A stretch of 64,000 nt of DNA from Octopus vulgaris. Its lineage: Eukaryota. The position numbers and the translations under genes are program-made. Positions 3,616 to 46,029 of this stretch are shown here, piece after piece (the stretch's first letter is position 1; every line of letters starts with the position of its first letter). The notes below the pieces were generated by a model. The model ran no database searches and had not been told where the DNA came from. It worked only from the letters and a program-made list of their open reading frames with translations. Location of the stretch: contig OX597822.1 in NCBI GenBank assembly GCA_951406725.2, positions 85,932,001 through 85,996,000 of the forward strand, in the 5' to 3' direction.

Positions 3616-6600
3616 CTGCAGGAAGGAAAACAAAAACATCATGGTTAGTTGTTTTAGTTTCAGGACAAGAAAAATAAAGTGACAGGGCAAGAGTTACGGC
3701 TCAGGCGAAAATGAGCAGATCAATGATCCAAGCTATTCCAGCAGAGACTGTCTTGCCTTTTTGTTTTGCAATCAAATACTAATAAGAACCTCATAATCCA
3801 ATGTGTCCTTCCTTTTTGTAAAATGGTGAAGGGGAAGACATTATATTCTTTATTTAACAATTATTAAGTTAGCATTAACATAGTTAACATAATCAGCATA
3901 AAAGAAAAAGAAACTAATTAGAAATAATTATGCGAAGAGGAAAAGACAACAACATTAGCTCAGTAATTAATATAGTTTAAGTGGCTCAACAAGTAAGGGA
4001 GACAACATTGGATATGTTTCAGTCATATGAGACTTCTTCAGTGAAGCTTAGACCTGACTGTACTTGTAGAAATAAAGATGAAATAATCACTACAGAGATC
4101 AATATTAGATCTCTGTAGATCTGTACAACATTGTACATGGAGAGGTGGCATAGAATATTTGCATATTTAGATAAATCATTGATGGAAAGTACTCAAAGAT
4201 TTTATTGCTTCATGTGGTGTGTGTGAGAGAGAGAGAGAGGACAGAGAGGAGATGTTCAATAAATAATGCTGACATAACAATCGAATTCTTATTTCTTTCA
4301 TATTATTCACATCTGGTCAGTTCTACCAGTTTCAAATAAACCAGCAATATTTCTAATTGTTGTTTTACTTCCAGGCTAACTCTGATTGAAAAACTCAGAA
4401 ATCAAAGACATTCCAATCATGACAACCCCATCTTTAAGAACATCTATGATTACTAAGATCACACTATCCAAGAATCTTTCCTTTCTTAAGTTGGTAGGGC
4501 TTGATTTGAGGGAGATTTGGCTACTATTTCCAGCAGGTCATACAGGCTCTATCATTGGCTCATATATTTTAGTTCTCTCTGCAAAAATTGGTTTATTTTT
4601 TTATGATTTAAGGCAAAAGATGAGGTTAGATCTTGATGCTGGAGTTGATCTGCTTTTTGATATTTTCATTAAATGATAAAAAATATTAACCCAATAAAAG
4701 GTGTTTGTTTTTTTAAATCTACCAAAATTCATCCAATTCAAGATATCAGCATTAAGATCAACAATGATCTGACAAGAGTTGAAATTATTTCTTTAGTTTA
4801 AGAGAGAAATGAGGATGCTAATACAGAACGATCATGCCACCCCACCCATTCTCTTATCAAACATCAGCTAAAATACAAAATCATTTCCTTATCTGACCAC
4901 CACCTTCCATATAACTTAATAAATACAACTCAAATAACTCAAAATCAACTTCTTATTCCCCCACCACCACCACCACAACCCCATCTCCATGAGACTTCCA
5001 TATTTGGACAAGGTGGAGAGATTTCTTAAAGTCAGACACGATCTTTTTTCAAGCAATTACATTGAAATGACCGATGATCTTTCTGTATTAACATCCTCGT
5101 TTCTTTCTTAAACTGAACAAATAATTTCAACTCTTGTCAGACCATTGTTGATCTTAATGGATGAATTTTGGTAGATTTAAAAAAACAAACAACTTTTATT
5201 TGGGTTAATTTTTCTTATCATTTAATGAAAATATCAAAAAGCACATCAACTCCAGCATCAAGATCTAACCTCATCTTTTGCCTTAAATCAAAAAAGTAAA
5301 ACAGTGTCAGCCAACCTAGTTACTCGAAGATTAATACAGTCCCAGGCTGTACTATATCCTGGACAGGCATAGTCCAATTCTACAAATCAAATGGAAATTG
5401 TAGTTGTGATACTCGTGCCAGTAGCATGTTAAAAGCACCATCCGAACATGACCGATGCCAGCGCCGCCTTGACTGGTGCCCATGCCGGTGGCATGTAAAA
5501 AGCACCAACCGATCGTGGCTATTGCCAGGATCCTCTGGCCCCTGTGCCGGTGGCACGAAAAAGCACCCACTACACTCACGGAGTGGTAGGTGTTAGGAAG
5601 GACATCCAGCTGTAGAAACACTGCCAGATCAGTTTGGAGCCTGGTGCAGCTTCCTGGCTTCCCAGACCCCAGTCAAACCATCCAACCCATGCTAGCATGG
5701 AAAATGGATGTTAAAAGATGATGATGATGACTGCAAGACAATATGGTCACAGGTCGATCTTTTGACAGTTTGCACTGTTGAACTCCTTATGAGAGAGAGA
5801 GAAAGAGATGTCTGTCGTCAGCTGTTTTTGTCTTTTAAAATCTGGAACAAGCCCTAAAAAGTTACAGTACCTACCAGAAACAACTATTTTAAAAAAAAAA
5901 AAATATTAAAATAAATAAAAGAAAAACAGACATCAATTGCGAATGCAAAAAGCCTGAAAGAGAGAATGGAATTGGTAATAAAGTTGACTCACCTCAGTTC
6001 TTCATCTTCCTCACCATGTTTGTCAAGATAGACTGATCCCCAAAGTGCTGCTCTCTGGCCACGGATCACAACTACTATGCTTGAGTTTACCAACAGAAAC
6101 ACACCCGTTCCAGCCCCACAAGTTATTGAATGCTAGACAGGAAAAAGAAATTGAAATAACAAATCCCACTTTACACAACAACAGGCATCACATTTGGCAA
6201 ATATTATTAAATTTTGTTTTTATTCTATGGTTGGATTCTCAAAAGGTACACTCGTTTAACAGCAGGGAAAATGCTAGAATTTGGACATAGCTCTTTCACT
6301 ACTTTGAGGTCATAAAATTCGAGCAAGTCTCCAGGTTCAATCACTGGTTAAGCCATCCTATTTTATTTATTTCTAATAGTAACACTATTAGAAATAAGAA
6401 AAGTATTTTTGGCTGTGATTTACTAATCTAGACAAGACTAGGTTCCACTCAGCTGATTTTGTCAATTATATACAACAAGTGAACAACTCGAGTGGCTGAC
6501 TCAATTAGACTCAAGGGAAATTTTCATTTGAGTCAAAGCAGTTGACTCAACTTGGTTTACAGACAATTGCTTTCTAGCAGAAACTGGCATCCAACCAGAA

Positions 6601-9600
6601 GAAAACATTGGATCTTCTGCTTGAAGATGAAGCAGAATCAAAAAAAGATCTACATGAAAATATCTTTAATCTTCTTCAACTTATCAATTACAAAGCTAGG
6701 GTTGAACAGTTTTACAAATTTCTATATTTGAACATGAATTCATGAAATAAATATTCTCATATTTATTTGTTACATTAAAACCATGATGGTATGATTTCAT
6801 CCCATGGTTGAGTTGACAACAGTAGCAGCTGCAACTTTTATGCAACACTGGTAAAATTTCAGTTTTTGAATTTGTTTTTTATTTTGTTGAAGATGTGGGA
6901 AACCACTCGGTATATTTGATACAACAGTCACGACTAAAGCCTTTTCTACCATCCCTCACAGCACCAAAGACAAGTCACTCTATTACAGAAGAGAGCAATG
7001 TTAAGTTTTAGCAGTCAGTATGCAGATATTGTTATGCACACAGAACGTATGATTATTAATTACAATAATGATTAAACTTTTGTGCAGTAATTGCAATCTA
7101 TATGTGCATTCAGAGAGCTTAGAGTTAGCATATGAAATAGTTTCCCAAGAATTCACCATCATCATCATCCATTTTCCAAGCTTGCATGGTTTGGATGATT
7201 TGACAGGAGCTGTACCAAGTTCCACAGTTTGGCTTAGTTTCTATGGCTGGATGCCCTTCCTAACGCCAACCACTTTACAGGGTGTGGACTGGGTGCTTTT
7301 TATGTGGCACCAGCAGAATTGACTGTCCATATTTACAGATTGACACTATAGACAAGTGTATATTATACAAGAATAAATGCACCATATTATATTTTACAGC
7401 TGAATATCTTTACACATAAGACAACAATCTGGGACAAATTACACTACAGAAAACTAACATCTTCTCCAACATAAGATTCCTCTTTTAACTACTTTATGCT
7501 ACAAACTATGTCCACAAGTTTCATAAAAAATTTAACAGAACTTCACAAATAAAACAAGTGCAATAAACTTCAAGTAGACAGTGCTTACCTGTACACATTC
7601 TCGAACTGATTCATGTTCACAGCAAGCTTCTCGGAAGCAGAGAAACTCTGCACATATTAAACATATCGTTGGATCTCGAGGAATTTTGTTACAAATCATA
7701 CAGGTTTTGTTGCGGTACTCCTGGAATATTTTGTAGTATTGATCAGGAAGTTCCACAAGCCTTGGTGGATGGAAAAAAAAACTTGAAGGAAGTAAATACT
7801 GAAAAAGAAAATCAAATAAAATAACCGCATTAGTAAGAAAACACACAGACATACACATGGCTTGTGATTTAATATACAAAAGGCAATGATTACATTCTGT
7901 AAAAGTTCCTGATCTCAAGTATAGAAGGTTGGTGCTTTTCTTTGATCTTTCAGGCAAATATTTGACATTATCATACAGGGTAGCCATGTTTGGAACCTGA
8001 ACAACTGGCAAATCATGCACTGCCTAAGCTTTCAATTTACTGCAAAATCTGAGCATGAAACTTGAAGTAACTCATATAATTCACATATTCATTAAATCAC
8101 ACACACACACACACACATATCCAGATTTTACAGTTTTATATTTGAGAGATGAAGAATTATGTACATCATTTACATTTGACAGATATTTGTCTTCATCTTG
8201 TTAAAACAACGTTTTGGCTGATATACTTTCCCACAGGCATATGGTGTAGAGGTTAAGAGTGCAGGCTACTAACCCCAAGATTCTGAGTTCAATTCCAGGC
8301 AGTGACCTGAATAATAATAATAATAACATCCAAAAATACCTTAGGAATGAGAACCCAGGTTCGAAATTTCCCCAGGACACCTGAAGAAGGCTGGAGAGTA
8401 TATAAGCTGAAACGCTGTGTTAACAACAAACAAGATGAGGGCAAATATCCGTCAAATGTAAATAATGTATCCAGATTTTAAATTCCATTTATATCAATAA
8501 TTGGTGCCCTTAGTATTATGAGTAAATGCCAAAGTGCCAATCTGGATAAGCTAGGGTTTTCAGAACAAAGAACTCAACCAACTGACTCTCACATTACAAA
8601 TACAATCTGTAAATGGAACAGTAAAAATGAGCAAGACTTTTCTTGAGTTTAAAATGAGACTTTGCTTTAGTTATCAACATTCCAATGATGGAGTTTTGTA
8701 TCTTTGTAAGAAACCAGCTACTTCTTCGGAGAAAGAACTTAGATAATTAAAAACAGAACACACACACACCTCGTATGACTTAATGCATCTATGTATGAGT
8801 TGAAGACATGAGTGTGATTTGAGGTGACATACTTGATTCTTGAGAGAAGGAGGTCCATCAATTGCTGTAGCTAATTCATGTAGCCAGAACCGGGTGATTG
8901 GTAAAATCTCAGGTACACAGAATTGAACAAAATGTTCAGTTCGTTGAGTTTCTTCTATTTTGCGAGGAATAGATAATCCTGATTGAGTATCAACAGATGC
9001 GCTTGGCTGGCTATCACAAGACTTTCCACCTAACATGAGGTAGTGGCAGAGGTAGGTAAATTCAGATGGATACTGAAACAGAAAAAAATATTTAAACATA
9101 ACAGCTTTTAGTACATATCATAAGATCCAAAGATTTTAGTTCCAATCACCATAAATTTTATAATTTTGGCTAATCTCAATTTCGAGTCCCTCGTCATCAG
9201 TAAATGTTCCATTCATATTCTTAAACTTGTATTTAACTCATTAACTGCCAAATTTTTGTTATTGATATTTTTTGGCTTTGCCAAGTGTCTTAGGAGTTAA
9301 AATAATATATAGTATTTAAATTTTCTTCACATGTGAATTATTTTGGAAATTATGATAAACTTTTCAAAAAGTTCCAAATAGGGATCACTGTAAAAAAACA
9401 TATTTCTCCTTTTCTATTCAATTAAAATAATAAACATTTTAATTTTTTTCAAACTATAGTATCAAGTGCGAATATGTATGAAATATCACGGAATGATATA
9501 AATGAGAAATGCCAAAAAAAAAAAAAGTTTTCAAAACAGTCAATATTTTTGTAGTTCAAAAATTGCAATTTATGACATAAAATGTCCTTTAGAATTAGCC

Positions 9601-43703: not shown

Positions 43704-46029
43704 AAAGAACAAGGAAGTTTAGACTATCACTGAGTAAAAGGTTGCCATTGTGTTGAATGGCTTTCTCTTCAAACACACACCCAATGTGCATATATATATT
43801 ATTTTATGTTTCAGCTCTAAAGTTATGGCCATGCTGGGGCACCATGGATATATATATATATATAAAAGAACAAGGAAGTTTAGACTATCGTTGAGTAAAA
43901 GGTTGTCATTGTGTTGAATAGCTTTCTCTTCAAGCACACATACACACATTAAGCACATATAAATATATATACACACATATATACACATACCTATAAGCAA
44001 GGAAAGAGAGAGAAAGAGAGCAACCACAAATATGTGAAAACCAGATGTGTTCAATGTGTAAGCCACAGTTGAAATAAAAAAACACAAACAGAATCAGATG
44101 AACACAAACAAATCAAAACAACACAAAATACATTTTGAAAATTAGATTTCAGAAAAGGGGATATAAACAGACAACAGAGCATCTCACAAATAATGTCAAT
44201 TCTACAGAAATACATTTAATTAACTGGGAAAAGAGAAAACGTTTATGAGCCTCACCTTGTCGCCTTTATTTGCATCAAAATTAATCGACTCAAACCAATC
44301 TTCAAGAGTTTCCAGACAAGCAGCGACTATTGCTTTTGTACAATGGGCAGTTTTCTATAAGAAAACAAAGTTTATGGTATAATTAATTGATAATTGTAAA
44401 GTATAATTAATTGGTAATTATAAAGTTTATTGCTCACCATAACAGAGCTGTAATGTATTGTTACAAATTATTGTACAAAACAAAAAAATTATTGAAACAA
44501 AACAAATAATAATATTCTTGGTGAATTCATGAGTAAAACAAGGAAGTTTACAAGACTATTTAGTATTTAGCAATTAATAGAATAAATAGGAAACCATATG
44601 TAAAAGATAAATCCATAATGTTAGAATTTTGACATTTTTTGAATTAGGTTTATATATCTCAGGAAGAGGTTGAGGGCGAAACTGTTTTTAAGAAAAAAAG
44701 CAGAAACATGACCTGCAACCAATAGGATGAAGGAAGGCATGTAGAATTTAGTGTCCAACCAAATATACCATGGATATGAATGCCCAATGCAAGAGATGCA
44801 AATTTAATATCCTTTTCTTCTCATCTATTTCCTCCCTACCCAAAACAGAATCCTTTCTTTCTATTTCACAGACATACTTGATCCATTAGGTTATCATTTG
44901 TTCCTGGTTTCTATGAATATAGCTAGAATTACAGTTCTATATTTAAGAGATGAGGAATTATGTACATTATTTACATTTTACGGATATTTGTTCTTATCTT
45001 GTTTGCTGCTAACACATTTTGGCTGATATACCCTCCAGCCCTCATCAGGTGTCTTGGGGAAATTTCAAACCTGGGTTCTCATTCCTAATAGATTATTATA
45101 TGCCCACGGGCATATGGTGTAGTGGTTAAGAGCATGGGCTACTAACCCTGAGATTCTGAGTTTGATTCTAGGCAGTGACCTAAATAATAATAATAACATC
45201 GAAAAATACCTTAGGAATGAGAACCCAGGTTCAAAATTTCCTCAAGATATATATCAGCTGAAACGTTGTGTTAACAACAAACAAGATGAGGACAAATATC
45301 CGTCAAATGTAAATAATATAGCTAGAAATATTGCATCATGCTTTGGTTGAGACAAAACTTCCTAGCCAAATTGCAGGGTGAAAACAAAACAAAAAAAAAT
45401 TAAAGTTATGATTTTAAGAAACCTGTCCATGTGACAAAGAAGTTTGCTTCCTAACAGAAATCAACAAGAAGTGTTATAAATTTCATTTAGAGAAACAAAT
45501 GTTTAACAGAAAATGCAACAAAGTGAAACCAAACTGAAATACTTACACTGTCCTTACAATGAGAGATCAAATACGACATTGGAGATGCCGAGATTTCAAG
45601 TTCAGCAGAAAAAGCAGCATAATACGTGTCTGGCTCAAATTCAACATGCTGAGTAAGTTCTCGTTCATTTAAATTACAACCTGAGAGAAAAAATTAGAAA
45701 GCAAAATAACAGTATTGGAATGGTAACTACTTATTCGCTTGTATCAAAGAAGTAAATTGATATAACTCCAAGAATGTATCTTAAAAGTTGCACTATGAAT
45801 CATTTGATATCAAAAATGCATTTTTAATACAATTGAAAAAATCATTACTTTGTATACACCACTGTAACTTTTATACTGGAGTGGTTGGCATTAGGAAGGG
45901 CATCCAGCTGTAGAAACCATGCCAAATCAGACTAGAACCTGGAGCAAGCTCATCAGCTCCAGTCAAACCATCTAACCCATGCCAGCATGCAGAGCAGATG
46001 TTAAATGATGATGATGGTGGTGGTGGTGG

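Follow-up and report, generated by a model that had tools for sequence, protein, structure and literature searches.

We analysed a 64,000-nucleotide stretch of the Octopus vulgaris genome (GCA_951406725.2, contig OX597822.1, positions 85,932,001 to 85,996,000 of the forward strand; hereafter the window), in which an insertion at 8118–8480 carries a tRNA-derived head, an (AAT)n spacer and a hammerhead ribozyme motif. Head and hammerhead together almost certainly belong to an autonomous Penelope-like element (PLE), as its pseudo-long terminal repeat (pseudo-LTR): a 3' untranslated region (UTR) of which a further copy stands at the 5' end. This element has the order head-hammerhead-tail, open reading frame (ORF), head-hammerhead-(tail), and the ORF encodes a reverse transcriptase (RT) and a GIY-YIG endonuclease (EN). 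The assignment is made because of the linkage of the unit to the coding region, the RT/GIY-YIG protein and the presence of the marks of EN-bearing (EN+) PLEs. For the short copies, we lean towards a predicted start by RNA polymerase III (Pol III), in which a captured tRNA(Arg)-like promoter would spawn copies resembling short interspersed elements (SINEs).

Copies of the unit were collected from the genome searched (G000, 2.8 Gb, 227 contigs). The unit follows at all 30 loci picked by GIY-YIG DNA, and its head is recognisable in 26 (4/30 are near-duplicates of the query); the 30 loci picked by the 35-mer just upstream of the head all lead into it. The whole unit, including the tRNA head, lies directly after the GIY-YIG stop codon and is found again as the 5' pseudo-LTR: when loci were picked by the N-terminus of the ORF, a direct copy of the unit preceded 19 of 30, reading through the tail into the ORF. 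Two N-terminus loci, L097 and L108, begin at the head, and L083 has the unit with its head at both ends. At L009 and L029, a decayed RT and GIY-YIG coding region stands on the same strand directly upstream of the head. Loci picked by the head itself are joined to the unit on the same strand in 25 of 30 cases and through an adjacent inverted arm in 3 more; the remaining two lack the rest of the unit on both strands. The earlier note, made from the sequence of the window, had taken the head as an integral part of the element, and these linkage counts, with 1,038 exact head 35-mers, rule out the chance nesting of a tRNA SINE; a free donor SINE made of the head and (AAT)n was likewise rejected, given the two such loci. 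The note had also anticipated an autonomous PLE sharing about 170 nt of the 3' part. Such a partner exists, and the restriction to the 3' part falls, as it shares the whole unit with its tRNA head.

On a natural 375-aa fragment (L090), RVT_1 is detected above the cut-off (E=2.4e-10). The best relative, P0001, is a PLE-type full-length ORF of 847 aa that is 55% identical, and 47 full-length RT-bearing relatives have the same domain set. The GIY-YIG domain stays below the Pfam cut-off on the fragment and on P0001 (E=0.23), which counts against the assignment; it was recognised as GIY-YIG with CCHH because it aligns with the region of P0043 that Pfam does detect (E=4e-5), with CxC..H..H visible, and this region is 53% identical to P0001. 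Inspection of the linker that joins RT to EN revealed no Zn-finger-like or Cys-rich motif. The marks of EN+ PLEs include a pseudo-LTR formed by partial tandem repetition, an inverted 5' copy and a 30–40-bp tail (PMC8557442). Here, RT, GIY-YIG, a partial-tandem pseudo-LTR, an inverted 5' copy with a tail at one end and, as judged by sequence and geometry, a minimal hammerhead were all found. By the features tested, the element belongs to the EN+ PLEs, and the linker places it probably in the Penelope/Poseidon clade. As described for Penelope and Poseidon (PMC8557442, PMC2377424), it has a single ORF with RT and C-terminal GIY-YIG, a partial-tandem pseudo-LTR with an inverted 5' copy, a 30–40-bp one-end tail that is the beginning of the ORF region (in Penelope, the 34-bp repeat), a promoter position in the 3'-UTR-derived pseudo-LTR and no Cys-rich linker. 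It differs from what is described for them in that its pseudo-LTR opens with a tRNA-derived A/B-box module, about 90% of the head-reaching copies start at the head and the sense strand is devoid of TTTT. None of the family copies retrieved has an intact ORF. Some EN+ PLEs retain an intron in the 5' region; here, no splice joint stood out in the RNA reads over the stretch examined, which is a 3' copy.

Family positions are counted from the first G of GGCATATGG, window position 8236 being position 1. Exact 35-mers occur in G000 1,598 times for the hammerhead and 354 times for the region just upstream of the head, next to the 1,038 of the head; the reversed 35-mers of hammerhead and head occur 0 times. 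Calibration from exact-match rates gives about 12,000 heads (10/116 exact) versus about 1,400 copies of the upstream region, and several tens of thousands of hammerhead copies, a very noisy estimate (3/143 exact). The copies decay from one master sequence, with a mean identity to the majority of about 92% (277 alignments). Minor non-CpG variants at positions 153 (hammerhead N7, T/A in 48/316) and 165 (loop II, G/A in 37/321) hint at subfamilies. A set of 120 pattern-picked and 30 best-hit loci, freed of 7 duplicates, yielded 143 insertions. The inverted part is present in 97 of them, and 40 are flanked by non-simple target-site duplications (TSDs) of 9–15 bp, which a shifted control gave in 0/143. 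The Penelope style of insertion proposed earlier is thus borne out by TSDs, inverted 5' copies and a tail at one end. TSDs were seen in 36 of the 97 insertions with an inverted arm and in 4 of the 46 without, which may partly reflect poorer 5' boundary calls. The 3' ends fall into two discrete groups, at 226–246 (38/90 copies) and 256–276 (48/90), and loose read ends accumulate there as well. No arrays were seen at the 30 loci inspected, where copies stand singly or in inverted arrangement.

The head was aligned to 25 distinct tRNA sequences of G000, representing six isotypes, and the best match was tRNA-Arg(TCG), with 49/73 identical residues and z=7.4. Its A and B boxes have the spacing of a tRNA and are both kept in the family majority. 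Four ORF-linked loci (L041, L051, L056 and L058) jump from the palindrome at the 5' boundary straight to the (AAT)n, the whole head being deleted as if the RT had skipped a folded domain.

The earlier note had rebuilt a hammerhead by combining the forward and inverted copies of the window, and this reconstruction agrees with the column majority of the family and is the hammerhead counted above as an exact 35-mer; the pileup backbone dropped three stem III nucleotides that individual copies carry. The proposal of a minimal, dimer-type ribozyme likewise fits, by sequence and geometry, the minimal type I motif. It resembles the minimal PLE hammerheads reported by Cervera and de la Pena (2014; PMC4209133) in being of type I with a 5-bp helix I, an extra base before helix II and a G10.1-C11.1 pair, in the palindromic 15.2/16.2 with no loop 3 and a predicted dimer, and in that most copies are solitary and derive from truncated PLEs. 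Unlike those described there, the motif follows a tRNA head, sits in the first codons of the ORF and has a helix II of 5 bp instead of 7–8. Minimal motifs of this type are described as inactive as monomers and of low activity as dimers (PMC4209133). Unconstrained folding of monomer and dimer did not return the active hammerhead fold.

The first long ORF begins 29 nt ahead of the hammerhead. Its ATG, the first to follow an upstream frame of two codons, is at position 115, and in 5' pseudo-LTR copies the frame stays open across the hammerhead into the PLE N-terminus. Residues 17–33 of P0001 match the N-terminal peptide that overlaps the hammerhead, and among 51 proteins (40,085 residues) this is the only site whose codons can spell the hammerhead geometry, the descriptor being modelled on the family. 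Since P0001 keeps the overlapping peptide, the overlap of ribozyme and ORF predates this family; judging from the protein sequence, stem II would have to contain a compensatory pair in P0001. A metagenome scan found no loci related to P0001. Short copies extend across the predicted cut site, and the 5' ends of the 30 N-terminus loci do not peak there, so uncut RNA served as template; a template whose 5' ends lie at the cut site was also considered and, for lack of such a peak, rejected.

The 5' extent of the unit was assessed on 90 hammerhead-picked copies, which are unbiased in this respect. Their 5' ends lie upstream of -20 in 6 copies, at -20 to +16 in 30, at 17–69 in 12, within the (AAT)n in 28 and later in 14. 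When 65 head-bearing arms were followed, 6 continued into the end of the ORF (and L140 did so across a deletion), 31 retained the palindrome GCCC-AC-GGGC and then left the element, and 28 ended in the palindrome or at 0–1. About nine in ten of the head-reaching copies therefore stop within a few bases of one point, and the upstream truncation rate of 0.26% per base (28 copies) predicts a loss of 9% over 35 nt. The boundary is the first G of the palindrome, 13 nt before the T of the A box. A second group of 5' ends (12 alignments) is found at positions 0–1, the start of a mature tRNA. At many junctions the palindrome is extended by a snap-back self-copy of a few bases, from which the sequence jumps at a microhomology (L006, L133, L135, L164 and L229). 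Such an arrangement suggests that the template RNA begins at the palindrome and that the cDNA end would fold back.

The tRNA module occupies the place of the internal promoter of D. virilis Penelope, described as TATA-less, LINE-like (long interspersed element-like) and located in the 3'-UTR-derived pseudo-LTR (PMC2377424). The majority sense strand of 2,659 nt contains 0 TTTT and 30 AAAA, and the absence of TTTT has P=0.04, 0.03 and 0.007 under three codon nulls. The copies themselves have 0.34 TTTT per kb versus 2.06 expected from composition; a second RT family at the same loci, presumably Dong/R4-like, has 1.27 versus 1.46. This depletion is no more than suggestive of Pol III, for which the sharp 5' boundary also speaks indirectly. 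We lean, as said, towards a start of the short copies by Pol III. A wider reading is tentative and, on balance, somewhat unlikely: the whole coding element would be read end to end by Pol III from a captured tRNA gene, its 2.4-kb ORF being purged of TTTT. The same doubt attaches to its corollaries, namely that the dimer-only hammerhead might switch an uncapped RNA between mRNA and cut template, and that the promoter might shed tens of thousands of SINE-like copies, so that SINE and motor would reside in one element.

Several observations weigh against these Pol III readings and the tRNA-like nature of the head. The cloverleaf is decayed and the minimum free energy fold is not tRNA-like; ARAGORN reported no tRNA in the window, and Rfam gave no tRNA or hammerhead match in the window region or in near-majority copies (one Rfam scan returned mostly microsatellite matches). 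The A-box region is lost in 8 of 79 ORF-linked junctions, 4 of them by skipping of the whole head, and therefore the structure of the head disturbs the RT. The TTTT result rests on one master sequence, a sample of one, and GGGG is also low (0.35 versus 1.08 per kb). Three RNA runs, in which reads of both orientations are equally common over the stretch and neither starts nor ends pile up, give no direct trace of Pol III activity and speak neither for nor against any polymerase or cleavage. Nor are all 65 arms independent insertions, and summed contig depth shows no step at the head; it is a poor measure, and reads are cut at the AAT repeat.

An ordinary PLE with an internal Pol II promoter, whose start site happens to house the tRNA-like piece as a fixed passenger (old SINE or tRNA retrocopy), would also account for the architecture. 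The D. virilis promoter mentioned above gives it a precedent, and a capped Pol II transcript gives the ORF the translatable RNA that it requires. This reading is nevertheless unlikely given that the distance from the start to the A box is that of a tRNA promoter, that both boxes are kept in the majority and that the sense strand has no TTTT, unlike the control RT family. Alternatively, the short copies could stem from full-length RNA without any separate promoter, through an RNase P-type cut at tRNA position 1 or through release or fold-back of the RT at the palindrome. The second group of 5' ends at the mature-tRNA start is what a cut predicts, and the whole-head skips show that the region folds. 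An RNase P cut, however, would remove the leader palindrome upstream of 0, which 31/65 arms retain; the palindrome, a stem of 3–4 bp, is too weak for a 90% stop, and the RT meets it only after passing the larger tRNA-like fold. We thus consider this origin decidedly unlikely.

The earlier note had favoured a free-standing non-autonomous tRNA SINE, and an independent family of this kind, with its own masters and mobilised in trans by the PLE, is the least probable alternative, indeed very improbable. The short copies do exceed the ORF-linked ones by about 9:1, and a short copy, in which the promoter and the two priming sites are all preserved, could in principle re-transpose. Yet the head is part of the autonomous element and, as seen above, is hardly ever found without the rest of the unit. 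Comparison of 83 ORF-linked with 122 head-starting alignments gave the same majority base at every column differing at p<0.01; the differences are gaps and decay, in samples partly biased by how they were picked. As the head-starting copies have no diagnostic base, a separately propagating SINE family is unsupported. The tRNA-derived head with A and B boxes is a property of a SINE2, but two others are lacking, as there is neither a separate family whose head is absent from the partner nor a LINE-like poly(A) or simple-repeat 3' tail: the 3' end of the unit is the PLE tail and the (AAT)n is internal.

Under the preferred reading, a Pol III start for the short copies within an autonomous PLE, Pol III would start at the G of the GCCC-AC-GGGC palindrome and transcribe through the hammerhead. 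The short RNA would stay uncut, as a lone minimal hammerhead would be unable to form stem III. The RT/GIY-YIG protein of the element would then nick the target with a stagger of 11–13 bp, priming would take place at either of two set positions (about 240 or 270) and the RT would run off the 5' end of the RNA. The palindromic cDNA end could fold back, self-prime and switch template at microhomologies, giving rise to the inverted arms. The promoter in the 5' pseudo-LTR may also yield a full-length RNA, in which pairing of the two hammerheads would switch the molecule from mRNA to cut RNA.

Short high-copy retroposons with a Pol III-type promoter followed by a hammerhead are known from schistosomes as SM-alpha and Sj-alpha (PMC6765202). 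In SM-alpha, the hammerhead is canonical and occurs in tandem arrays, and no coding partner is named in the sections of that account drawn on here; in the octopus family, the motif is minimal, copies occur singly or inverted and an autonomous PLE physically includes the unit. The TRIMp3 elements Cassandra, Helenus and Ajax have similarly captured a Pol III promoter derived from a small RNA in their terminal repeat (Kojima 2024, PMC10886601). They are described as non-autonomous LTR elements whose autonomous partners must use Pol II and do not share the repeat, whereas in the octopus family the tRNA module is part of the autonomous element itself. Animal non-LTR retrozymes resemble the family in being short hammerhead units of 170–400 nt proposed to be mobilised by PLEs, and differ, as far as their description goes (PMC7229834), in forming head-to-tail arrays with canonical hammerheads, in not being presented as PLE end pieces and in having no tRNA head.

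In the literature covered, which was mostly outside subscription journals and had Repbase, Dfam and SINEBase outside its scope, we found no tRNA-headed pseudo-LTR in an autonomous PLE. The octopus SINEs OK, OR1 and OR2 are reportedly tRNA-derived, high-copy and related to tRNA-Arg, as Ohshima and Okada are said to have described in 1994. OR2 is described as a CORE-SINE (PMC4758252, PMC5804259), and the present family has, by eye only, no CORE-like body. It is possible that the family is already catalogued in Repbase, Dfam or SINEBase, as a SINE or as a Penelope consensus. What appears new against the sources considered is the tRNA module in the pseudo-LTR of an autonomous PLE, the pairing of Pol III and hammerhead having its precedent in SM-alpha.

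Autonomous retrotransposons are generally taken to use Pol II (PMC10886601), and little is understood of how PLEs are transcribed or of what their hammerheads do. An autonomous PLE that carries a tRNA module at its promoter position offers a clean test case for Pol III-driven retrotransposition, and the sharp 5' boundary with two fixed 3' ends maps the RNA that serves a PLE as template. The element shows one route by which a SINE-like family can bud from the element that drives it; provided that the promoter is real, its short copies behave as SINEs do. Annotators could file tens of thousands of these copies as SINEs though they are PLE ends.

The features of the insertion at 8118–8480 are collected in Table 1. 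An exact 13-bp direct repeat brackets it, as the earlier note had stated, with a chance expectation near both ends of about 2e-5; the first two bases of the repeat overlap the 3' end of the element, and the true TSD is therefore 11–13 bp. The inverted copy of about 100 nt of the element's own 3' end, the tRNA-like head and the (AAT)n that follows it were likewise recovered where they had been placed. Identity to the family majority is 85% for the inverted arm and 91% for the forward unit (about 8230–8469). The inverted arm carries the PLE tail of about 33 nt, absent from the forward arm, and the 3' half of the hammerhead. Stem II of the hammerhead is broken here, with two pairs lost, and C replaces U16.1 (GCU instead of GUU); because of these losses this ribozyme is predicted to be inactive, in agreement with the earlier view. 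No intact hammerhead pattern occurs within the window.

Table 1. Features of the two family insertions in the window.
Feature	Position	Strand	Basis
Left TSD, 11–13 bp	8118..8130	+	exact direct repeat
Inverted copy of the 3' part of the unit, family positions ~167–270	8131..8229	-	repeat search, alignment to family majority
Residual GCCC-AC-GGGC palindrome at the shared 5' boundary (putative transcript start)	8230..8235	+	
tRNA-derived head; A box 8242–8252, loop 8266–8272, B box 8285–8296	8235..8307	+	
(AAT)n spacer, variable length; common 5'-junction site in other copies	8310..8327	+	
PLE ORF start, ATG at 8347, open across the hammerhead	8347..8469	+	
Minimal type I hammerhead, damaged here; predicted cut after 8416	8376..8421	+	
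Hammerhead stem I	8376–8380/8417–8421	+	
Hammerhead core	8381–8387 and 8409–8412	+	
Hammerhead stem II	8389–8393/8404–8408	+	
Hammerhead halves in the window copy	8376–8393 and 8404–8421	+	
3' part of pseudo-LTR, stops at tail-less 3' end (family position ~234–240)	8422..8469	+	
Right TSD	8468..8480	+	exact direct repeat
Second family insertion	44916..45327	.	13-bp direct repeats 44916–44928 and 45315–45327

The second insertion has an inverted arm (about 44929–45088) longer than that at 8131–8229, a snap-back palindrome near 45098–45115 and a forward arm that extends to about 45320, in which the 5' half of the hammerhead is deleted. The window is also rich in other short interspersed repeats (83–472, 901–1071, 5414–5730, 7148–7315 and more), several of which look tRNA-like by eye. 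Elsewhere in the genome, L156, L160, L170, L207, L233 and other copies start in the (AAT)n and are fused there to the (AAT)n tails of the presumably Dong/R4-like RT family, which suggests joining of 5' ends by microhomology. L083, which is close to full length, has an (AAT)n in its 5' pseudo-LTR that turns into an extended stretch of (ATT)n (L083:95-220). Finally, five loci on contig C17 of G000 (L009, L010, L029, L035 and L036) represent one PLE insertion repeated with its flanks across the contig at 97–99% identity, through either segmental duplication or assembly redundancy.
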